A stretch of 63,965 bases of DNA, the filler included, from Dirinaria sp. TL-2023a (Eukaryota), in the NCBI GenBank assembly GCA_051941275.1. It is 3 parts of 3 records of this genome, joined end to end, with 100 filler letters (N's around TTAATTAATTAA, not from the genome) between each part and the next. Parts side by side here need not be neighbours in the genome. Positions count along the whole stretch, not along the records: positions 1 to 22,638 come from JAVEBF010000219.1; 2 more parts are not named here. One strand, 5' to 3'. The notes under the pieces were generated by a model. The model searched no databases. It worked only from the letters and a program-made list of their open reading frames with translations, and had not been told where the DNA came from. The translations under genes and the position numbers were made by a program. Within the stretch, counting starts at the first letter, position 1. Each line of letters starts with the position of its first letter. Positions 4,607 to 45,452 of this stretch are shown in pieces.

Positions 4607-4956
4607 ATGGACAACATTAACAACACCGCCGAAGACATCTCCAACAAAGCCGCGGGCCACAAGGCGAATCTTGCCAACCCAAGTACGTACCGCTCGTCTT
4701 TCTCTTCAATCATATCCCTCACCCCCTGAACTTAACCTAATTCGGCAAACGTTCAGACACATCTGAAGCCTCCAAAGCCAATTCCAAGGAGGTCCTTGAG
4801 TCACTGGATAAGCCCTTCTACGGCGACGAAGACCAGAATGCTTCCAAGAATCCCAACCAGGTTGCAGGAGGGTTGAAGGCCGCGATTAACAACCCAAACA
4901 ACACGGAAGCGGGGACGGAGGCGGCGCAGAAGAAGCTGGATAGTCTGAGTAGCTGA
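4607..4956 (+). CDS. con-6: Conidiation protein 6 (Con-6) family hydrophilic stress protein, intron 4683-4756
   Basis: Spliced product MDNINNTAEDISNKAAGHKANLANP|NTSEASKANSKEVLESL...KNPNQVAGGLKAAINNPNNTEAGTEAAQKKLDSLSS* carries two Con-6 repeats (GHKANLANP, GGLKAAINNP). Missed by the ORF track. Confidence 0.85.
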
Positions 4957-11442: not shown

Positions 11443-12175
11443 CTTCGCCTTCGGTAGGTAAAAGTTGCTACATGATCTCTTCCTTCGTCTTCACTGCTTC
11501 AACTCTTCAAGACACCGGACAGCGGATCGGCACTAGAGCAAAGTGCCGAGGTATCTCGTACACTACTCAATGATTCATGATGATTTTCTAGAGTCCTCAT
11601 GGCTTTGGTGCTCTCCACTATGTTCATCTTCAAAGGTCCAACCGCTCATCATAGCATCAGGCGATCGCCTAGAAGCAATTTTATGAGTATGACAATTTCT
11701 TGTTCAGGATAATCTAAGGTATGTATGTACGCACTCCAGGGGTACCTTAGGGTTCTACTTCAATAGGTACCTTATGGAGTACCCGCTTAGCCACTACGAG
11801 GCCCGCGAGGTACCAGGGATTTAAAGTTGTGGCTGAGGCGGCAGATCGCCATGCGCTGTGGCTTGGTTGGTGTTTCTTCTTGTTCGCGCGTCATTTCCTT
11901 GATTTGCTCCTGAAGATGCCCAAACCCAAACAATTCACTCTTTGTCATTCCTTCTTCTGTAACGCTTGGCCTGTTTCCACAGTACATATTCTGAATCCTA
12001 GCCACCTCTCCGGCTTGAAACCTTCTTTGTCGTATACGTATTCTTATTTTCTTAGGCCACGGAGCTTTATGACATTGCCCAAGCGTGTTGCTGCCTCTGT
12101 GTACTTCATTCTTTAAGGTGCTCGTACCCAAGTCACACCATACGAGCACCTCGTGACAACGGCTAGTTGTTCACC

Positions 12176-13878
12176 ATGTTCAGATGCTTATCTACCTTGA
12201 TTCTAGTAGTGATACCTCTTGCCGCGTCGGCCGCTGCTCCAAAACCGGTTGCAGCAGCACTCGCCGAGCCTCCCTTGATAACCCCTTCGCCCTCGCAATG
12301 GGATCCTACAAGAACGTTGAAGTCTAGGAGAGGTGTAATCAGCGACATCGAAGGCGATGTGAACTCAGTCCTGTCAGGGCTAGGGTCCGACATACCCTCC
12401 TACGTGGCATCCGGTGTACCAAATTTCTTCCAAAACTTCCCTACCGGCGACAATGTGAGAAGCAGTCTTGGTTTGGAAGATAGTCAAATTGCGGCGCTCC
12501 CAACGCAAGTTCTGAACGTGCCGTATGTGTGCCAACTCATGAACAGTATCAGTTGCTGAAATATATTGTAGGGGCTATGGAAACTGGACAGACCGAGGCT
12601 GGAACCTACGTTTTCACGGCAACGTCTTCAAACAGCCCAACATAAGCGAGTCAAAACTTGATGACCTGGCAAACGGGTTCCTCATAGGTACTTCTGTTCA
12701 GTCTCTGCCGCCTTCCCAGGCCTCTCAAGCAAGAAATCTTACTGCCGAAATCTATGTCCTTCAGCAATCTGATCAAAACGTTACTTTCAATATCAAACCG
12801 GCCCCAACTGCTGGGGCGTCTGGCGAGCAAGGCGGTGGTGGAGCAATCACCCCACCGGGCGGAAGCCAGCAGATCAAATTTCCGACCCCCACGACATCGG
12901 AAGGAGACTTTGATGGTTTCGTACAAATCAATGACAGCGGGCTCATACCCGGCAACAGCACTCATGATATTCAGCGCATGAACGTCTACACTCAGGGAGA
13001 CATCAATGGCAACGCAACAGCATACCTTGTGCCCCCCACAGGCCTCACGGTCATTTCCGACATTGATGACATCCTGAGGGTGACCAAGATCTACGAGCCC
13101 AAAGAAGGCTTACTCAATTCCTTTGCTCGTCCTTTCACGCCATGGATGAACATGCCGGACATTTACGCCAATTGGTCCCGCAGCATACCGAACTTCCATT
13201 TTCACTACTTGACAACCACCCCTGAGCAAGTGACCCGCAACTACATGGACTTCATCTACAAGACCTACCCCGGTGGATCTTTCGATACCCGCCCCTTGAA
13301 CTTCAGTGATGTCAGCGCTACGCTAAGTATTCGCAAATTTCTCTTGCAAAAGATCTTCATGACCTTTCCGCAGCGGAAGTTTATTTTGGTCGCGGATACC
13401 AGTAATAGCGACGTAATGAGGGATTACCCAGAGATGGTCACAGACTTTCCAGGACAGGTCCAATGCATATTCTTGAGGAATACATCTGCAACGGACGACG
13501 GTGATAAATTTCCGTACGATACGAGTGGGTTCAAGGGTCTCAACACATCAACGTATATGTTCTTCCACGTGCCTGTGAGTCAATATAGAACGTTCTTTTG
13601 CTTCCTTATTTGGTTTTTGTGCTTGCCCAAGCGCAAGACTGGGCTGCGATGCTAATGCCTTGCAGGACGATCTTTCGCATCTCGACATTTCCAATGGTAA
13701 TTGTCTCAATACTACGATTGGTCAAAACGTGACGTACGGAGAGCAAGGCCTTCCATTCGGCATCAATCTTGGCGGCGGGAAGCCTAACGCAGCCACGGGA
13801 TTGTCTGTAAGCTTTTGGACTGCGTCCGCAACAGTGCTTGCTTTAGTCTTCTGGGGCTTCAGCTCAGCAACGCTGTAG
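12176..13878 (+). CDS. Secreted, probably GPI-anchored APP1-like (DUF2183) phosphatidate phosphatase-family protein; introns 12523-12571 and 13575-13665
   Basis: Signal peptide MFRCLSTLILVVIPLAASAA, HAD-like ISDIDDILRVT motif, FPQRKFILVADTS and a hydrophobic C-terminal tail. Confidence 0.8.
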
Positions 13879-15267
13879 ATGATGACTGCGGACCAAGCCA
13901 GGCGCTAAAGGGTGGCGTTGGATGAGCACAGGTTTAGGACTCATCCACAAGGCAGTGGAAAATTGTATGCGTAGCGTGAACGTCATCAATCAGTGGTTTC
14001 TTCTCCCATTGGTCGATGGATGACTTCTCTTGTACTGTAGGTTTGCAGTCTCCTAATCTGGCTTCTCCAGGCTGAGAAGCCGATGGATGCGGTTGGTGCC
14101 TTTCTTGCCTTTCTCCCAAGCCCAATACTGCTGCAGATACGATGGTACCAAGGCACCAGGACTACTTGACTTCCTTTGCTAGCGATACAAGGCAGCATGG
14201 TCGGTTCAGTAGACATTCGACCGTAATCCACAGCGGTGTCCCACATCAGGCCCTGGTCAAAGAAATGTGGAATTCATCCGCCCTACCGGTCAGCTGGTAT
14301 CTTACCTCAAGTCGGGTAGACCATCACTACCCAATGAACATACATTACCTACACACATGGATACGTGTAGGAAAGGCACAACCTAATCGGTCGGATTTCC
14401 CCTCTTGGGATTACCGGGCGTACATACTTCAGTGCCTTGAGCGATGTACAGCAGTACCTTATTCAATACCCAATTTACATGTAATTCACTCTACCTAGGT
14501 ACTTGGTACTTGAACGCTGTATCCTCGGCCGCATCACCATCTCTCGACTACCTTAGAACATGACCCCGGCTGATAGGGATCTCTTTCAACATACACCGAT
14601 AGGTATCCAGGTGGGGCGTGTATCGAAATCTTCCTTTATTTGTCCCACCGGACTCGAATAGTCTCGTCATGCCGGCTCCGCTCTGGTAACGGATGTCTAT
14701 TCCGTGGCTGTGTTCTTTCAACTTGGTGTCGTCACCGAAAAGTAGTTGACATTCCATTCATCCACCGGTGCAGTTGAACGCATACAAGATCCCTCTTGCA
14801 CCCTTTTTTTCCTCTTCTTTTTTACATCCGTCCTTTCACCTTCTACTTCCGCAACTACTCTGTCACTCTTGCAGCATCTTCAGCCTTCCGACCAGGCTAC
14901 AGCAACAGTAAGTGTTCTGCCTTCTGCTTTGCCATTGGGCCAGGCTTCGAGCATCTACTTGAATAAGTAGAGTGACCCAGCGCTTCTTCCCCAACTTGCA
15001 CCTTGTCACTATTGCGGATCCCAGGCAGCTTAACATAAGCCAAAGCCTGGAGTAGTTCACTGCTTCCTTGGTCTTCATCCTCCAATAAAGTATTTTAAAC
15101 TCACCCATCGCACTGGCCTATCTTGCACCTCTTTTGGTACCTCTCGAGAATGATTCGCTTCTTCCCACCAATTGCCTGCACTGCGTTAGCAGACTTGGCC
15201 CATTGCACTTTGTTTTCTGATTAGCCGAGTAGGTTCGTCTTTCGACTATCCACGATCGTTCAACATC

Positions 15268-16611
15268 ATGAAAGCAACCGCCATTCTTGCTCTCTTGGGC
15301 ACCACTATCTTTACTATCCTCGACGTCAATGCTCACGCAGTGCCCGAAGCTGGTAAGCGCCTTCCTTCCTCACTTCGCAGGATTGAGGTTTACGTTGTCT
15401 GACACTCCCCGCTAGTGGTAGAGGTTTCAAACGGCCAACTTGGTTTCCCGGAGGCCAAGCGTGACAATGAGGTCCTTCATCCTTGTTGGCGGGCTCCCGA
15501 CGACTCAATCCAGTGTCCAGTCGTCAAGCGTGATGCTGAGGCTCAGCCATGCTTTGATGGCCCTGGCGGTATCGTTGCTTGCCCTGTCAAGAAGCGGGAA
15601 TTCTGTTGGGAAGCCAATGATGGCCGTAAGTCTTATACAGGTGTCGTTAGCCAAATTACTTGCCAACGGTCTTAGAAATCCACTGCAGCAACCCTCCAGA
15701 GAAGAAGCGTGAGTTTTGCTGGGAGGCCGAAGACGGTCAAATCCATTGCAGCAACCCTCCCGAGCAGAAGCGCGAGTTTTGCTGGGAGGCGCAAGATGGT
15801 CAAATTCATTGCAGCAACCCTCCTAAAGCGAAGCGCGATGATCCTTGTTACGAGGCTCCTGATGGACAGTCGGTCCATTGCCCGGTCGTCAAACGAGTTG
15901 ACGGTAAGTGCATCTTCCTTTGAAACCGCAGCCTCCGAGTTTCTTTTCCGGTACTTTTCATTCAGTTGTGTGCTTTCTTGTGCTCTTTCCCCCTTGGTGT
16001 TTAGCATCGTATCATTCTCGACTTCTAATCACCTAAACCTCTCCAACGTATCATCGTACGTAGGCACGGCATCATTGCCCGTCATCCCTGGCACATCGAT
16101 ATACTGTAGCAAATGGTACAATGTCACGACTCCAGATCCTCTTGCTTGCAGCAAAGCTCTCGCTGCAGGTAACATTGGTATAGACCAGTTTCGGGCACTC
16201 AATCCTAGCGTCAACAACGAGTGCACGAATGTCATGGTGGGCTATGCCTATTGTGTTGGATGTAAGTCGCTCCACCTGAAAGCGTGGCCATGGCTAACAT
16301 CAACTGTGGCCAAAACCCACGGTTCTTCCAAGAACGGCACCAAATCATACACCAATGCCTCTCCTACGTCAACAACAGCAGCCTGGTATAATCCCATTGC
16401 AAAATCCGCGGCTTCCGAAATCACTACTGCTCCTGGTGATCCGCGTTTCTGCCTCCATGGCAAAAGATGCGTCACACCTCCCAAACGGACGCGACATCCC
16501 GCATTCGTAGAACCCTTCCGAAAAACGGATTTCGCTGGCTGGTTCGCCGCCACAGCTCTGTTGACCGCCGAACCTGCGAGCACACCTACTGAGCGGACGG
16601 AGATTACATGA
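15268..16611 (+). CDS. Secreted Kex2-processed repeat precursor (six Cys-x9/10-Cys peptides) spliced to a C-terminal LysM domain; exons 15268-15352, 15416-15625, 15676-15903, 16064-16611 (3' end uncertain)
   Basis: Signal peptide MKATAILALLGTTIFTILDVNA. Three phase-1 GTAAG...TAG introns restore one frame. KR-delimited repeats such as EFCWEAEDGQIHCSNPP are followed by the LysM signature CSKWYNV...C...IGIDQFRALNPSVNNECTNVMVGYAYCV. Confidence 0.8.
15711..15836 (+). repeat. Two adjacent 63-bp coding tandem repeats, plus an intron-split third copy from 15598
   Basis: gagttttgctgggaggcc...aagcgc (15711-15773) and gagttttgctgggaggcg...aagcgc (15774-15836). Confidence 0.9.
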
Positions 16612-17635
16612 TCATGGACCCAAAAGCAAAACCCAAGTGCCTGCAAGCACAAACCCTGGAATTTATCAAGAAATCACAGACGTACGAAATGGCAATGTCG
16701 GATTAGCCGGACTCACTGCAAACCTTGGTCCCTTTTTATTTTGATTTCCATCCCTTGTACAATATAGCTAATATGGTCGTTGTCTTTTTTCGTTCTAGCA
16801 ATCTGAAAAGTTTTTTTCTTTCCACGCTTTGCTTTCGTCTCATTCTGAATTCTGATATCATCCTTTGGAGGAACCTGCAGCTAATGCTTGGACACAGATA
16901 CCGCAGCCGCTGAAACCTGAGCATGCCGGTTCCTGACCAAAACCCGGAACACAGCACTCGGACGTGCTGGTCACATAGGTGTCCTAGTGTATATGGATGG
17001 ATGGTGGTTGCACGGAGCATATTTCGCACCTCTGCTTTCAATTCTCTCTATCTAGCCTTCTTCGCACATATTCGCCTGCTATATAGCTTTTGAAAAAAAA
17101 ATCCAAAAAAAAAAATCCAAAGAGACAAGATTCAAATAGAGCACGGATACCACGCATCTTTCCGGTTTTTTTTCTCTTTTCTTTTCCGGTCCCCCTATAT
17201 GCACTACCTCGTACTCGTACGAGTAGAGTACCACCCACATCTACTCATGTCGTGTTTGCAAGGCATCTAATTTCCCAAACATACGAAAGAAAAAACAGAA
17301 AAAAAGGCTTCGACAACCATAAGTATTTCTTCCCTACCCTACCCACCTACTTTACCTACAAAGTAAATCCCCTCTCCCCTCTCCTAAACGCACGCACCAA
17401 AGCAGAACCTACAAAAAAACCCGTGTCCATTGAATTTCAATTCAATCAAACCGATGCATCCAGATCCAGCGCAATGATTGATCTAATGAAGTGAATGCCC
17501 GCTTCGCAAAAGCCCCCTTCCCCCAAATAAAAAGAGAAGAAGAAAACGCCCAAAACCACCTGTTCAATAACCTTAGGTCGACCCCCCTGACCGGGTAAAA
17601 AAACCCCCATGAACAGATAGAACAATCCACGCACT

Positions 17636-19815
17636 CTAGAACGCAGTTCCATCCCCCCCTCCCCCAGCAGCAGCAGAACCGGCACTAACGCCGCGATTCA
17701 TCCACCCGGGCATCCAACTCCCTCGATTCGCCTTCTTGCGCGCCTTCTCCCGTTCCCGTTCCCGCTCCTCCTCCTCCTGCTGTTGCTGGTGCTGGTCCTG
17801 CAGGCTCCTGCCCTCGCCTCCTCCTTCGCGCGCGTTCTCCTGCACCAGCCGCAGCGGCCGCAGCCGGTTCTGCGTCATCACCGCGCCTCCGTACTGTGGG
17901 CCGAGCCCACTACCGCCTCCGCCCCCACCGCTACTGCTCCGGGGCGGGGAGCTCGTGCTGCCGACTTCGAGCTTGTCGTTGTTGTTGTTGTTGTTGTTGT
18001 TGGTGCTGCCGCGGTCGCTGAAGGTGCTGTTGGAGCTGCTGCCCGGGTTGGGATTGGAATTCGGGTTAAGGGCGGAGCCTGAAGCGGCGCGGGAGGTGGC
18101 GGTGGTCGTGATGGTTGAGGGTTGGGTGGTGGTGGAGGTGGAGGCGGAGAAGAAGGAATTGCGTGCCCCTGCTGCGCTGCCCACGGAGGGTGATAGACGA
18201 GGCGACATCAACGGTGACCCGCCTGATGGGGGCCCGCGGTACATGTGGGTCACGAGTGGGGCGGCGCCCATGGGGGCCGGCATGTCGGATTGCGAACGGC
18301 GGTGTGCGTCGCGCACGGCTTGCGGGCGGGCGATAGGGACGCTTCGCGCTGTGGAAGGGTCTTCGGTGGGAGGAGCCTCGGCTGTAGGTGCTGCTGTTGG
18401 TGGTGGAGTGGAGGTTGTGGTTGGAGCTGCCGGAGCGATTTGGCTGATTGGACGCGGTTTCCGAGGGCCGGCGACCACGGAGCGCGCGCGTTGCAGGAAC
18501 GTCGTGGGTTGAGGTTCTTCGTCTTTGGGTGGTGGAGGAGGCGGGAGTTCTTTGTTGGTGTTGCCCGATGATGGAGGGCGGGCTTTGCCTGACATCAGGT
18601 CCGGGTTTTTCTCCAGCACGTTTTCGAATTCCTTGTGCTGCAGCAGACGGCCGATGATGCTTTCTACGTAAAGGCTCAGGGCTTTGTTCTGCTCTCGCAG
18701 TGATTTCGTTTCCAATTCGAGCCGGCGGTAGTTCTCGCTTTCACCTTCGGCTGACTCAAGTTCTTCGGCGAGGGATCCCAGTCCGGAGGAGTTGTGCATC
18801 ACATCTGTCTTGCTGAAGTCACCGTTGAGTGTTTTTTCACTTAGAAGAAGCTGGAAGCTTTCGTTGTCCTCCATTAATCTGGCATTGGTAATGCGCGTTT
18901 CTAGTAATGTCTTCTCAAGCTCTTGCAATTTCCCTCCGCCGGCATTCTCGAGCTCGACGGCTTTTATTTGCGCTTCAGCAAGCTCGAGCCGTAATGATTC
19001 GATAAGCTTATCTTTGGACATGGCCAGCTTCGAGTTGTTCTTAGCATCACTTGCTGTAGTAGGTGAGACAGGGGCGAAGTGACCATCTGCTGATGATTTG
19101 CTTCTCAAGCTTGCTAGAAGATGTCAGCAAAATATTCTTTCAGCATGATGCATGTAACCCTACAAGGCCTGGATGGAGATCTTTCTTCATTGGCCGTCAT
19201 CTTCACCTCCCGCTGAGCCAATACGTCCTTAAGCCTTTGGATGACAGCCTGCTGCTCCTCTGCTTTGGCGGTTTGCTCAGCCTTATCACGCACCATAGCT
19301 GACTGTTCGGAGTCGAAGAGATCTTCCATCTCCCGCTTTTGCCGCATGGAATGGACTTTCTGATCTTCAAGATCATTGATCTGGGCTTCACTCTCATGCA
19401 TTTGCTCTTCAAGCTTCCCTTGCTCCTGCAAAGACTCGTCCAACTTCATTTGCAGCATCTTCAATTGTCGCTGATACTCTTCCGAAGCAGTCTCTGCCTT
19501 CTCGACTCGACTCCTCAGCTCTTCCATCAAGGCATTGTGCTCCGCCCTTGCATCATCATCGCCAGGTTCATCTGAGACATTTGCGTTCATATTGAGGAAG
19601 CTTGTATTGGGCGACGGTCTCTTGACGTTAGGTCTTACTGCTTTCTGCGTGCCATTTGATGCTTTGAACGAAGGCGATCGCCCATCTCCATTTGCGCTGA
19701 GGGCCGCGGAGTTTTGGCGGTTCGTACCAGAGGGACGAGGAGAGCCGGAAGTAGTGGATCCTTTTGAAGGCGTTGAATTCGAAGGGGGCTGAGGCCTCCT
19801 ATTGACACTTGCCAT
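17636..19815 (-). CDS. Conserved fungal coiled-coil protein with low-complexity C-terminus (one intron at about 19163-19114)
   Basis: ORFs of 233 and 490 aa joined across a short intron. Heptad coiled coils (LLETRITNARLMEDNESFQLLL; EQNKALSLYVESIIGRLL) and poly-N/G/Q/E tracts. Confidence 0.75.
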
Positions 19816-20480
19816 GATTCACGTTCTTAGTTCCACGGAATACGAGCATCGATGCTGGCTGGTCCTGCTTCAGTACGTTCTCAGCAAAAGCGGACGCGCG
19901 AACCATTTGAAGAGTTTGGAGAGGTTTGAGCGAGGTGAATGATAAAACTAAAATTCTCGAATCTCTGCAATGTGAAATTTCTTGCTTGTTGGACTGCGAT
20001 CGTAAAGCTGAATCCCCGATCCAAGTCTGGCCCAAATACCGCCGTTGCCCTGGTTGACCCCTGGATGCGGTATCGAGAGGTATGTGATACTACCTTATGA
20101 ACGATGTGGATACAACGGTATAGGTCTATACGTACAGCCCTCGGCTTGAGTGGCTTTCCTTCAAGTAAGCCGAGTATCGATAACTAACGACAATGAGTTG
20201 CCTATTTCAGTCTTGGTGGCTGCTGCATGTACACATTCATGGTCCCTTACTACTGTACTGTAATATTGCATGTGCTGAGCCAGAGCTGATGAGGTCGCGT
20301 CTTCGGCCGAATCAGGGTCCCTCGGTCCATCTTTAGCCTGCAGATCACCCGCTCGCTTCTGGATCGAGGGATCTCGGGAAAAATTCAGGGAAGCACACCA
20401 CCATCGTTCAGTATTACATACAATTTTGCAACAACCCCCAAACATTGCTGGTATCCTCCACTTACATACCACGCGCAAAG

Positions 20481-22638: not shown

Positions 22639-22738
22639 NNNNNNNNNNNNNNNNNNNNNNNNNNNNNNNNNNNNNNNNNNNNTTAATTAATTAANNNNNN
22701 NNNNNNNNNNNNNNNNNNNNNNNNNNNNNNNNNNNNNN
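22639..22738. other. Artificial contig spacer (N44-TTAATTAATTAA-N44)
   Basis: N runs flank a 12-mer that gives stop codons in all six frames. An identical spacer occurs at 45353. Confidence 0.97.
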
Positions 22739-45352: not shown

Positions 45353-45452
45353 NNNNNNNNNNNNNNNNNNNNNNNNNNNNNNNNNNNNNNNNNNNNTTAA
45401 TTAATTAANNNNNNNNNNNNNNNNNNNNNNNNNNNNNNNNNNNNNNNNNNNN
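45353..45452. other. Artificial contig spacer (N44-TTAATTAATTAA-N44)
   Basis: Same structure as 22639-22738. Confidence 0.97.

Follow-up and report, generated by a model that had tools for sequence, protein, structure and literature searches.

Tandem two-cysteine loop peptides in a probable new family of Kex2-processed repeat precursors from lichen fungi of the Teloschistales and Caliciales

The gene analyzed here, which lies on the plus strand of the window (the whole stretch of DNA under study, 63,965 nucleotides with filler), belongs to a lichen-forming ascomycete, a Dirinaria MAG by its source, and RNA of a relative shows it to be transcribed. It encodes six tandem peptide units with two cysteines each, and it belongs to an undescribed family that is common to two orders of lichen fungi. 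The reading that best accommodates these data, and one that we consider likely, is that of a new family of Kex2-processed repeat precursors (KEPs) in which some members bear a fused LysM or CBM18 module. That the peptides serve as signals is the least secure step of this reading.

The coordinates of the gene are given in Table 1. By inspection, the hydrophobic core of the N-terminus comprises 16 residues between M-K and V-N-A, and a like pattern is found in the homologues. The introns proposed for this locus in a preliminary description (15353-15415 and 15626-15675) have canonical sites, and RNA confirmed the first and was compatible with the second. The RNA contigs derive from three runs of one sample of a close relative that is approximately 90-99% alike; they are low-depth (2.6-5.3) and were placed at 90% likeness, a setting at which joints can stem from other organisms. 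Of the 11 differences listed for the relative's RNA, six are synonymous changes at third codon positions. In the exon 2/3 region the relative's contigs skip 113 nt, from 15624 to 15738. Since this length equals intron 2 (50 nt) plus one 63-nt unit, the skip is consistent with intron 2 but is an unclean confirmation, as it is confounded by the missing repeat unit, for which a copy-number difference or an assembly collapse are both possible explanations. The position of intron 2 is conserved, as shown by two homologues (P0035 and P0049) in which the reading continues across this position. The gene had been described as hidden, but an identical model is already public as P0001, a 356-aa "hypothetical protein" of a Dirinaria MAG that is 100% identical over exon 3. 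The end that had been placed at 15903 proved to be the end of an exon, and the coding sequence continues beyond it. The preliminary description also missed the transcript beyond 15903, the possible joining of the LysM-fold exon, the conservation across two orders and the resemblance to two-Cys alpha-pheromones.

Table 1. Features of the precursor gene and its 3' variants, in window positions
Feature	Position	Strand	Details
5' untranslated exon	14779..14907	+	RNA contig X1 record 1, then joined to 15233; start at or before 14779
5' UTR intron	14908..15232	+	325 nt, GTAAGT..TAG; joint 14907 to 15233 in X1 (side 119) and X2 (side 30)
Exon 1	15268..15352	+	ATG at 15268; translation
Signal-peptide-like N-terminus	15268..15333	+	residues 1-22: M-K, hydrophobic core, V-N-A; by inspection
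Pro-region ending in first KR	15334..15462	+	translation; interrupted by intron 1
Intron 1	15353..15415	+	63 nt, GTAAGC..TAG; skipped by X1 record 1, GT..AG ends, side 119
Exon 2	15416..15625	+	translation of joined exons
Unit 1 + KR	15463..15531	+	loop C-W-R-A-P-D-D-S-I-Q-C; unit type also in Heterodermia P0037, P0038, P0049
Unit 2 + K-KR	15532..15597	+	starts D-A-E-A; loop C-F-D-G-P-G-G-I-V-A-C; type at equal rank in P0035, P0049
Unit 3 + K-KR	15598..15710	+	loop C-W-E-A-N-D-G-Q-I-H-C; intron 2 splits its Gln codon
Intron 2	15626..15675	+	50 nt, GTAAGT..TAG; 113-nt skip in contigs X2 record 7 and X3 record 8
Exon 3	15676..15903	+	ends phase 1; donor GTAAGT at 15904
Unit 4 + KR	15711..15773	+	loop C-W-E-A-E-D-G-Q-I-H-C
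Unit 5 + KR	15774..15836	+	loop C-W-E-A-Q-D-G-Q-I-H-C
Unit 6 + KR, then V-D + first base of split codon	15837..15903	+	C-x10-C loop; exon 3 end
Intron 3, short form	15904..16063	+	160 nt, GTAAGT..TAG; leads to LysM exon
LysM-fold exon (predicted)	16064..16261	+	198 nt, four Cys, phase 1 at both ends; GTAAGT at 16262
Open reading continuation of public model	16262..16614	+	Ser/Thr-rich tail, stop 16612-16614; frame open 116 codons
Distal coding exon	16898..16920	+	7 codons, then TGA (16918-16920); transcript to at least 16951

Translating the joined exons reproduced exactly the six KR-delimited units with two cysteines each that had been proposed. Seven KR sites are present, one after the pro-region and one after each of the six units, and the cysteines are spaced C-x9-C except in unit 6, where the spacing is C-x10-C. 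The precursor holds at least three unit types, and the order of the units is conserved in relatives. The repeat at 15676-15838 is more than chance; Tandem Repeats Finder reported a 63-nt period there with 2.6 copies and 88% matches. Among the near-identical units 3-5, synonymous and non-synonymous codon differences numbered 9 and 2, 10 and 3, and 4 and 3, and since synonymous changes outnumber non-synonymous ones between these units, the repeats are under selection. The KEP architecture that had been suggested for this gene is thus well founded: its start resembles a signal peptide, it has more than the three internal repeats required (six units, of which units 3-5 are near-identical), and KR separates the repeats.

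We then considered whether the KR sites might go uncut, in which case the product would be a modular secreted or wall-bound protein, with a string of disulfide hairpins serving as a spacer or binding array before LysM and CBM18 domains. In 12,050 residues of 41 family proteins we counted 226 KR, 27 RK, 41 KK and 24 RR pairs. Given 675 Lys and 620 Arg residues, approximately 35 KR pairs were expected, so that KR is approximately 6.5-fold over-represented, and it is approximately 8-fold more frequent than RK. Within 14 residues of the 140 loops, we found a KR on the downstream side in 117 and on the upstream side in 105. This enrichment, at sites between nearly every pair of units, argues against an uncut protein. 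So do the residues that follow the KR sites: among 90 units with a KR at each end, X-Ala or X-Pro opens 32 and Gln opens 33, starts that are sensible only if the N-termini become exposed. Unit starts of the form KR-[S/D/A/E]-P-Q-E-H-C-W in some species correspond to KR-Q-E-H-C-W in others. In the window precursor a Ste13-type start occurs in one of the six units (the D-A-E-A of unit 2), and the earlier suggestion that this is an X-Ala trimming site gains strength from the paired X-Pro-Q-E-H-C-W and Q-E-H-C-W starts of the relatives. Family units range from 16 to 31 residues, most of them 19-22.

The AlphaFold2 model of P0001 places hairpin strands at residues 92-94/100-102, 113-115/121-123 and 134-136/142-144, giving two-strand units with a cysteine at the strand ends. 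Mean pLDDT was 75-86 over the 10-residue blocks that hold units. It fell below 50 in the pro-region (residues 24-48) and over the KR linkers at 66-68, 88-90, 108-111, 129-131, 148-154 and 170-184. The prediction agrees with the hairpin units of the preliminary description, and the location of the KR pairs in low-confidence linkers is a further point against an uncut protein.

The 3' end of the transcript is variable, in that exon 3 can be spliced to a distal exon, giving a peptide-only form of 181 aa, or to the LysM-fold exon. For the former, three contigs of one sample (X1, X2 and X3; side 55) contain a joint from 15901 to 16897, which fits a GT..AG intron at 15904-16897 after a shared G is shifted. 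For the latter, X1 record 3 begins at 16063 and is preceded by a loose end that matches 15882-15902 at 19 of 21 positions by eye; at 21 letters this overhang is below the 31-letter bridging rule, and the junction otherwise rests on ab initio gene models, P0001 among them, which uses the same 15903-16064 junction. Downstream, the tail at 16262-16614 has pLDDT below 50 and a weak similarity to P0053 (score 67 against 37.8 +/- 6.9 for shuffled sequences, with 1 of 500 shuffles reaching it). A putative intron of 71 nt from the donor at 16262 to an acceptor at 16332 would, if removed, lead to an immediate stop, and with the same donor spliced to 16898 the LysM exon would be a cassette of 198 nt; read-through gives the 356-aa model. 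The RNA contigs leave 16220-16896 without coverage, a hole that proves nothing.

Exon 16064-16261 is predicted to fold as a LysM domain, with chitin binding as a putative property. Its model (pLDDT 85.9) has a beta-alpha-alpha-beta order (E17-19, H27-35, H39-45, E61-63). The top Foldseek rows were LysM domains, including 5ylg_C (prob 0.98, rmsd 2.0 A over 50 columns) and 5bum_A (1.7 A over 52), and VIA-align returned 5k2l_A at Z 5.2 (rmsd 1.9 A over 48), with LysM proteins making up most of 35 rows. Statistical support for these matches is weak (Foldseek E >= 0.068; a Z of 5.2 against a typical best Z of 7-8 for unmatched models), modest scores being expected for a domain of 50 residues. The Pfam LysM profile PF01476 gave no match up to E = 10, either with the exon alone or with nine domain-bearing proteins. 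Those nine models (P0002, P0006, P0009, P0010, P0013, P0022, P0032, P0037 and P0053) conserve the LysM-like domain, and Chitin_bind_1 (CBM18) was above the Pfam cut-off in P0009, P0016, P0034 and P0045, where it follows a stretch rich in Ser/Thr of a kind typical for wall proteins. The nine models that join repeats to a LysM-like domain, the four that carry CBM18 and the one RNA overhang across the exon 3-LysM junction are what an uncut modular protein would lead one to expect; because the relatives' models come from MAG annotations, some fused models may merge neighboring genes. Against an uncut protein, peptide-only forms exist, both as the 15903 to 16898 joint and as models in relatives (P0003, P0007, P0046 and P0047). 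Taken with the KR distribution and the unit starts, we regard the uncut protein as very improbable and continue with the reading of a processed precursor.

Relatives of the precursor were sought among 1.84 billion representatives, giving 37 at E <= 1e-3 and 19 at E <= 1e-10, and more came from further searches. A profile search with alignment A1, in which the best 8000 candidates by shared words were scored, returned at least 13 matches and is no census; an RCC1 protein among the matches was disregarded. P0039 (1125 aa, E = 5.9e-4) lacks the loop by pattern and was dropped as a probable chance match. All named members are lichen fungi placed in the Teloschistales or Caliciales (the orders were checked for Dirinaria, Heterodermia, Brigantiaea and Letrouitia), and as far as the searches reach the family is confined to these two orders. 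The loop, C-W-E-A/T-x-D-G-Q-V/I-x-C, was compared over 184 C-x9-C loops in 48 proteins (this one and 47 others), excluding P0039, P0040, P0043, P0052 and P0053, which are fragments or not family. Position 2 was W in 155 loops, position 3 E in 124, position 6 D in 132, position 7 G in 167, position 8 Q in 132 and position 9 V or I in 172. A metal-binding role for H-C...H-C was rejected because the first His varies among the family. Near-identical tandem units occur in Teloschistaceae, for example in P0004 and P0007.

The repeats had been described as unrecognized, and this holds for the sources consulted. Pfam has no family for them and gave only sub-threshold or composition-driven matches. DUF4124, zf-P11 and DUF952 were seen on exon 3, DUF7028 was above cut-off in P0004 only (1 of 41 members), and Ntox37 was reported in 3 of 41, with Ntox37/UL128 in P0008 lacking any stretch that passed alone; all were taken as tandem-repeat artefacts. 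The supplements of two KEP catalogues (PMC6339444, PMC7329392), in the portions available to us, lack Xanthoria rows, and a search of them for loop strings found none; section 10 of PMC6339444 does not list the loop motif with the conserved motifs. In the literature we found no account of the family, of a KEP-LysM fusion or of a lichen alpha-pheromone.

With respect to function, the main and serious rival is a divergent alpha-pheromone. The gene would then be the clade's alpha-type sex-pheromone precursor, the counterpart of Ppg1/PpgA, sensed by a Ste2-type receptor, and C-x9-C would be a lineage-specific elaboration of (W/F)-C-x-x-P-G-Q-x-C. Like Ppg1/PpgA/Ccg-4 and yeast MF-alpha, the family has a signal-peptide-like start and pro-region, Kex2/Ste13/Kex1-type marks (KR, followed in part of the units by X-Ala or X-Pro), tandem short peptides that are near-identical in P0004 and P0007, two cysteines and a Pro/x-Gly-Gln turn. 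In Ascomycota the Ste13 signature is generally tied to alpha-pheromones, and two-Cys alpha-pheromones have been described, including the R-F-C-H-L-P-G-Q-G-C-S-K motif in Xylona (both in Le Marquer et al., PMC6339444). The present loop likewise runs F/H-C ... P-D-G-Q ... C-S. ESM Atlas neighbors included "Pheromone 1" (0.82) and MF_alpha (0.80), which are below the 0.9 level and serve as leads only. Known alpha-pheromones have 9-13 residues, whereas the predicted peptides have 17-21, their net charge averages about -3, and their cysteines are spaced C-x9-C instead of C-x6-C. Several further features set the family apart from a pheromone precursor: it has at least three unit types in one precursor in an order conserved in relatives, it carries LysM and CBM18 modules, and in six relatives unrelated two-Cys peptides (P-x-C-G-A-x-I-C) share the precursors. 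More weakly, the Ikaeria MAG has two members at different loci (P0004 and P0024), and the Wetmoreana sp. 5 MAG has two adjacent ones. The Pfam scans of the window revealed no mating-type gene domain. The short alpha-pheromone core of the (W/F)-C-x3-G-Q-x-C type (in part after PMC6339444) was not found in the units. In the part of Umemura Table S2 (PMC7329392) that we could consult, none of the 12 KEP rows of two lichen fungi (Umbilicaria pustulata, seven; Endocarpon pusillum, five) is flagged as a fungal pheromone, so that this catalogue does not identify an alpha-pheromone of these fungi; the Endocarpon genome paper reports the loss of an alpha-factor-like precursor in that non-Lecanoromycete lichen fungus. 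On balance we judge the alpha-pheromone reading unlikely, and the broader reading of a new KEP family is retained.

A second alternative is a heavily modified RiPP precursor (dikaritin, borosin or other), with cores cross-linked by tailoring enzymes and not by a simple disulfide. KEP architecture is shared with ustiloxin-type precursors, and DUF3328 genes lie on average approximately 3 genes from such KEPs, according to Umemura (PMC7329392). The preliminary description saw no DUF3328/UstYa or tyrosinase gene, and two Pfam scans bore this out. They covered 95 of the 125 ORFs of at least 110 aa in the whole window (all but 30 overlapping ones) and 123 ORFs of at least 65 aa between 3966 and 28039, within approximately 12 kb, and neither revealed a domain of DUF3328/UstYa, tyrosinase, P450 or methyltransferase type, in scans that could miss domains split by introns into shorter pieces. 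Neither a nearby DUF3328 gene nor a Tyr core for cross-linking, as in dikaritin or ustiloxin-type precursors, was found in these data: Tyr is absent from units 1-5, including the near-identical units 3-5, and occurs once, in unit 6. We give the modified-RiPP reading almost no credence.

As a new KEP family, the precursors resemble catalogued KEPs (Le Marquer et al. 2019, PMC6339444; Umemura 2020, PMC7329392) in the signal-peptide-like start, at least three repeats, KR between them and, as in most KEPs, no DUF3328 neighbor. They differ in the 11-residue two-Cys loop C-W-E-A-x-D-G-Q-I-H-C and in the LysM and CBM18 modules. Hum3 and Rep1 of Ustilago maydis (PMC4617103) also have tandem repeats parted by Kex2 motifs, and Hum3, in which a cell-surface hydrophobin follows, is a precedent for Kex2 repeats before a wall-related domain. 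In contrast, the Hum3 and Rep1 repeats have 31-55 residues, are amphipathic and lack a Cys loop, Hum3 carries a hydrophobin instead of LysM or CBM18, and the organism is a basidiomycete. The LysM effectors Ecp6 (4b8v/4b9h) and Mg1LysM (6q40) are among the structural neighbors of the predicted beta-alpha-alpha-beta exon 16064-16261, which differs from them as a single divergent domain, missed by Pfam LysM, that lies behind a peptide precursor and a KR.

From the sequence we infer that the predicted peptides would be secreted, cleaved, trimmed and closed by a disulfide, and any activity is likewise inferred. The signal peptide would carry the precursor into the ER, where its approximately 20-residue units may fold as small beta-hairpins and the cysteines at the ends of the 11-residue loop may be oxidized to a disulfide. 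In the late Golgi, Kex2 would cut after each of the seven KR sites in the disordered linkers, a Kex1-type carboxypeptidase would trim the trailing K/R, and a Ste13-type dipeptidyl aminopeptidase would remove X-Ala or X-Pro pairs (from unit 2 here and from many units in relatives), often exposing an N-terminal Gln that could cyclize. The expected product is six secreted acidic loop peptides of approximately 17-21 residues, and from the LysM splice form a small domain of chitin-binding type, located behind the last KR, would be delivered as well. Because the peptides bear the marks of alpha-factor-type maturation, they may act outside the cell as diffusible signals that are hormone- or pheromone-like. 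More speculatively, and with considerable doubt, the loops might serve lichen fungi as an extracellular signal specific to their lineage, either as the alpha-pheromone in the Teloschistales and Caliciales or as a signal in the thallus or the symbiosis, perceived through a Ste2-like or other receptor; splicing would then decide whether LysM is delivered, coupling signaling to the wall surface as in no described KEP.

To our knowledge, hardly any secreted signaling molecules are known from lichen-forming fungi, and none of their mating pheromones has been identified. This family offers concrete, synthesizable peptides of 17-21 residues with a core conserved across two orders. Such conservation is far stronger than in most KEPs, of which 838 types have been catalogued together with 2560 precursors that stand alone, with only approximately 200 types in more than one genus (Umemura, PMC7329392). 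The link to LysM and CBM18, possibly made through alternative splicing, would be a new architecture for the KEP class, and it suggests the chitin wall or hyphal surface as the site at which the peptides may act. If they are pheromones or thallus signals, they would provide a handle on sexual reproduction or tissue organization in organisms that are very hard to manipulate.

Joining the exons by script and translating them reproduced the exon and intron reading of 15268-15903 (+) given in the preliminary description, with its pro-region and six units delimited by KR (Lys-Arg, the Kex2-type site). The product opens with M-K followed by a hydrophobic stretch that ends in V-N-A, which looks by eye like a signal peptide; the pro-region ends in KR, and KR stands behind each of the six units. 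The donor of each intron reads GTAAG[C/T] and the acceptor TAG. Pairwise codon differences among the three near-identical units were 9/2, 10/3 and 4/3 (synonymous/non-synonymous), and because these differences are mostly synonymous, it is the peptide sequence itself that is maintained, beyond mere repetition of the DNA. KEX2-processed repeat proteins (KEPs) are defined, in the available part of PMC6339444, by a signal peptide, at least 3 repeats and KEX2 sites between the repeats. The proposed KEP architecture fits this definition, with the signal peptide judged by eye.

Features of the precursor locus and its neighbourhood
Feature	Position	Strand	Detail
Short ORF	4741-4953	+	Con-6 (conidiation protein 6) match, E = 3e-15
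5' UTR intron	14908-15232	+	325 nt, GT..AG; contigs of two runs
Coding exons	15268-15352, 15416-15625, 15676-15903	+	joined by script, translated
Tandem repeat	15676-15838		period 63 nt, 2.6 copies, 88% matches (Tandem Repeats Finder)
Distal coding exon	16898-16920	+	seven codons then TGA; completes 181-aa product
Unit 1 loop		+	C-W-R-A-P-D-D-S-I-Q-C (translation)
Unit 2 loop		+	C-F-D-G-P-G-G-I-V-A-C (translation)
Units 3-5 loops, three copies		+	C-W-E-A-[N/E/Q]-D-G-Q-I-H-C (translation)
Unit 6 loop		+	C-x10-C type (translation)

RNA support came from three runs of a single lichen sample, each holding a small share of the window; aligned at 90% likeness, they yielded eight low-depth contigs (depths 2.6-5.3) of a close relative. 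One contig lacks the 63 nt of intron 1, with 119 letters on the shorter side, which bears out that proposed junction, while support for intron 2 is indirect. It comes from two contigs that skip 113 nt from 15624 to 15738, the combined length of intron 2 (50 nt) and a single 63-nt unit; the relative either has one unit fewer, in which case repeat number differs between close relatives, or lost it when the repeat was collapsed in assembly. Among the listed coding-exon differences of the relative, 6 of 11 are synonymous third-position changes. Three contigs, one per run, join 15901 to 16897, and the intron 15904-16897 fits GT..AG after a shift of a shared G. This joint, together with GTAAGT after 15903, makes 15903 a phase 1 exon end; the previously given span therefore holds as an exon end but not as the end of the coding sequence. 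A separate contig spans 16063-16219 and carries a 21-letter loose end that reads K-R-V-D and matches 15882-15902 at 19 of 21 letters by eye. This implies a second splice, from 15903 to 16064, which is weak on the overhang alone because 21 letters fall short of the 31-letter bridging threshold.

The same junction appears in a public model. A search with exon 3 gave three protein matches among 94 candidates, one of which, P0001, is a 100% match deposited as a 356-aa 'hypothetical protein' from a metagenome-assembled genome (MAG) source-named Dirinaria sp. It has the same three exons exactly, then the 15903-to-16064 junction and a stop at 16612-16614; the gene is thus not hidden, contrary to what had been supposed. 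The other two matches come from two Gyalolechia MAGs. The proposed homology search did find relatives: phmmer with one family protein, P0003, against 1.84 billion representatives returned 37 proteins with E <= 1e-3, among which 19 reach <= 1e-10 and 5 reach <= 1e-30; of the 37, 35 were retrieved along with ten sequences from later searches. Every named member (22 of 30 named by clusters, plus names from two other searches) is a lichen fungus. Taxonomy look-up placed Dirinaria and Heterodermia in Caliciales, and Brigantiaea and Letrouitia in Teloschistales. We take Ikaeria, Caloplaca, Variospora, Seirophora, Squamulea, Villophora, Loekoesia, Wetmoreana, Blastenia, Gyalolechia, Xanthoria, Xanthomendoza, Polycauliona, Flavoplaca, Xanthocarpia, Calogaya, Teloschistes, Gallowayella, Pyrenodesmia and Fulgogasparrea to be Teloschistaceae. 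No order beyond Caliciales and Teloschistales was represented among the named matches of these searches, a range that is a lower bound because short, fast-evolving precursors are easily missed. Two proteins of the window's own lineage, P0035 and P0049, have the unit types in the same order as the window gene, and since they read through at the codon of intron 2, the position of that intron is conserved.

Processing signatures recur across the family. The 12,050 residues of 41 family proteins contain 226 KR pairs, where their K and R composition predicts about 35; RK, KK and RR number 27, 41 and 24. Of 140 loops caught by a loose pattern in these proteins, 117 have KR within 14 residues downstream, 105 upstream and 90 on both sides. 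The 90 units so bounded are 16-31 residues long, mostly 19-22, with a mean net charge near -3; 32 start with X-Ala or X-Pro and 33 with Gln. A shared core follows KR directly in Ikaeria (KR-Q-E-H-C-W), while Gyalolechia, Letrouitia and others have two more residues in front of it (KR-[S/D/A/E]-P-Q-E-H-C-W), the pattern expected of trimming by a Ste13-type dipeptidyl aminopeptidase back to the same N-terminal Gln. Of the 184 C-x9-C loops that lie near a KR in 48 proteins, 155 have W2, 124 E3, 132 D6, 167 G7, 132 Q8 and 172 V/I9. Six relatives (P0019, P0024, P0011, P0005, P0003 and P0002) also carry an unrelated KR-bounded peptide, absent from the window gene, with a Lys-rich leader and then Y-P-x-C-G-A-P-I-C-F (C-x4-C), repeated up to 4 times in P0019. 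The C-termini of P0008, P0041, P0042 and P0032 share a four-Cys tail, Q-V-D-P-K-Y ... C-H-K/Q-E-K-V-P-Q ... G-K-F-C-Q-F-P-P-C ... C, that may be a further small domain. DUF7028 scored above cut-off over the repeat region of P0004 from Ikaeria (39.4 bits, E = 5.8e-10), in 1 of 41 members, probably by summing weak matches to eight identical repeats.

The main rival explanation is that the precursor is that of an alpha-pheromone. The family shows the maturation marks of alpha-factor. In the part of PMC6339444 available, Le Marquer et al. describe two-Cys alpha-pheromones with a P-G-Q centre, and the family's loop has P-D-G-Q between its two Cys; however, both the loop and the peptides of the family are longer, and its peptides carry a net negative charge. 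Two Teloschistaceae precursors, P0004 and P0007, with 4-8 near-identical units, have a textbook pheromone-precursor look, but the window precursor mixes at least 3 unit types in conserved order, and the P-x-C-G-A-x-I-C peptides share precursors in six relatives. ESM Atlas neighbours lean to pheromone, though below the level that counts, while an Ikaeria MAG has two members at separate loci and the Wetmoreana sp. 5 MAG two adjacent ones. On balance we regard an alpha-pheromone as unlikely, and attached chitin-binding modules also speak against it.

The exon from 16064 gave no Pfam family up to E = 10, alone or in nine relatives, and Pfam did not place it in the LysM family at sequence level. 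Folded alone with a 10-row alignment, it reached pLDDT 85.9 with a beta-alpha-alpha-beta topology. Foldseek ranked LysM domains from fern and horsetail chitinases first (prob 0.98 with rmsd 2.0 A, and prob 0.95 with rmsd 1.7 A), with Ecp6 and Mg1LysM lower and all rows at E >= 0.068; VIA-align over 48,161 chains gave a best Z of 5.2, and LysM-containing proteins made up most of 35 rows. We accept a LysM fold on these predicted structures. Models P0002, P0006, P0009, P0010, P0013, P0022 and P0037 have the same domain after the repeats, P0032 has it before them, and a Pfam-significant CBM18 chitin-binding domain ends four relatives (P0009, P0016, P0034 and P0045). These fused models are ab initio from MAGs and may merge neighbouring genes; a real link is favoured by the occurrence of such models in both orders and by the RNA overhang at this locus. 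The LysM-fold exon is 198 nt, phase 1 to 1, followed by GTAAGT, and could thus be a cassette joined to 16898, giving a 247-aa product, or else the reading frame may stay open beyond it, as in P0001. The relative P0053 has an open frame of 151 residues beyond this domain, with weak similarity to the window tail (score 67 vs shuffles 37.8 +/- 6.9; 1 of 500 reaches 67).

AlphaFold2 on P0001 with the family alignment (mean pLDDT 59) predicted each unit as a two-strand hairpin with Cys at the outer strand ends (strands 92-94/100-102, 113-115/121-123 and 134-136/142-144), in agreement with the hairpins first suggested. Unit-bearing 10-residue blocks average 75-86, and the KR linkers (66-68, 88-90, 108-111, 129-131, 148-154 and 170-184) fall below 50. 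Such a model suits a chain of folded beads, each closable by a disulfide, with exposed and cleavable linkers between them.

Pfam found no DUF3328/UstYa, tyrosinase, P450 or methyltransferase domain in 95 of 125 window ORFs of >=110 aa, nor in 123 ORFs of >=65 aa at 3966-28039, matching the earlier report that no DUF3328/UstYa or tyrosinase gene is visible in the window. Since none of these domains was found in the scanned ORFs and units 1-5 have no Tyr, a dikaritin-type RiPP is unlikely. Neighbours are of housekeeping type (short-chain dehydrogenase, APP1-type phosphatase, ribosomal proteins and others). Upstream, 12167-13655 (+), which may be two exons of one gene, combines an APP1-type phosphatidate phosphatase catalytic domain (E = 1e-37) with a signal-peptide-like start, unusual for such an enzyme. 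Downstream, a long ORF pair at 17636-19818 (-) has Ser/Pro/Asn runs, a coiled-coil-like N-terminal part and no Pfam family. Four runs of 44 N's, in pairs 12 bases apart (22639-22682, 22695-22738, 45353-45396 and 45409-45452), were taken for masked or unresolved stretches within low-complexity regions; these positions are those of the filler between records, outside the genome.

In the available parts of the sources, the window's loop is not among the conserved KEP motifs of section 10 of PMC6339444, and neither that text nor Umemura 2020 (PMC7329392) mentions lichens, Lecanoromycetes, disulfides or LysM. Their supplements, in possibly incomplete copies, hold no Xanthoria rows or searched loop strings, so the suggested catalogue comparison gave no counterpart within those copies. 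Umemura Table S2, as available, gives 7 KEP rows for Umbilicaria pustulata and 5 for Endocarpon pusillum, 0 of 12 flagged as fungal pheromone. Our literature search found no published description of the family, of a LysM-fused KEP or of a Lecanoromycetes alpha-pheromone. The nearest architectural precedent, from the part of PMC4617103 available, is Ustilago maydis Hum3, in which Kex2 repeats are followed by a surface domain (hydrophobin).

The KEP architecture class and the annotation of the window gene as a hypothetical protein were known beforehand. The original observation is confirmed, and its interpretation is supported and extended. The locus belongs to a KEP family that is strongly conserved and, in these searches, restricted to one clade of lichen fungi, a new variant of a known architecture class. 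Its cores are predicted disulfide loops, its units bear trimming marks of the alpha-factor type, and a LysM appendix (elsewhere also CBM18) is optional. As a working model, the predicted peptides would be released at the hyphal surface and act outside the cell as a signal.
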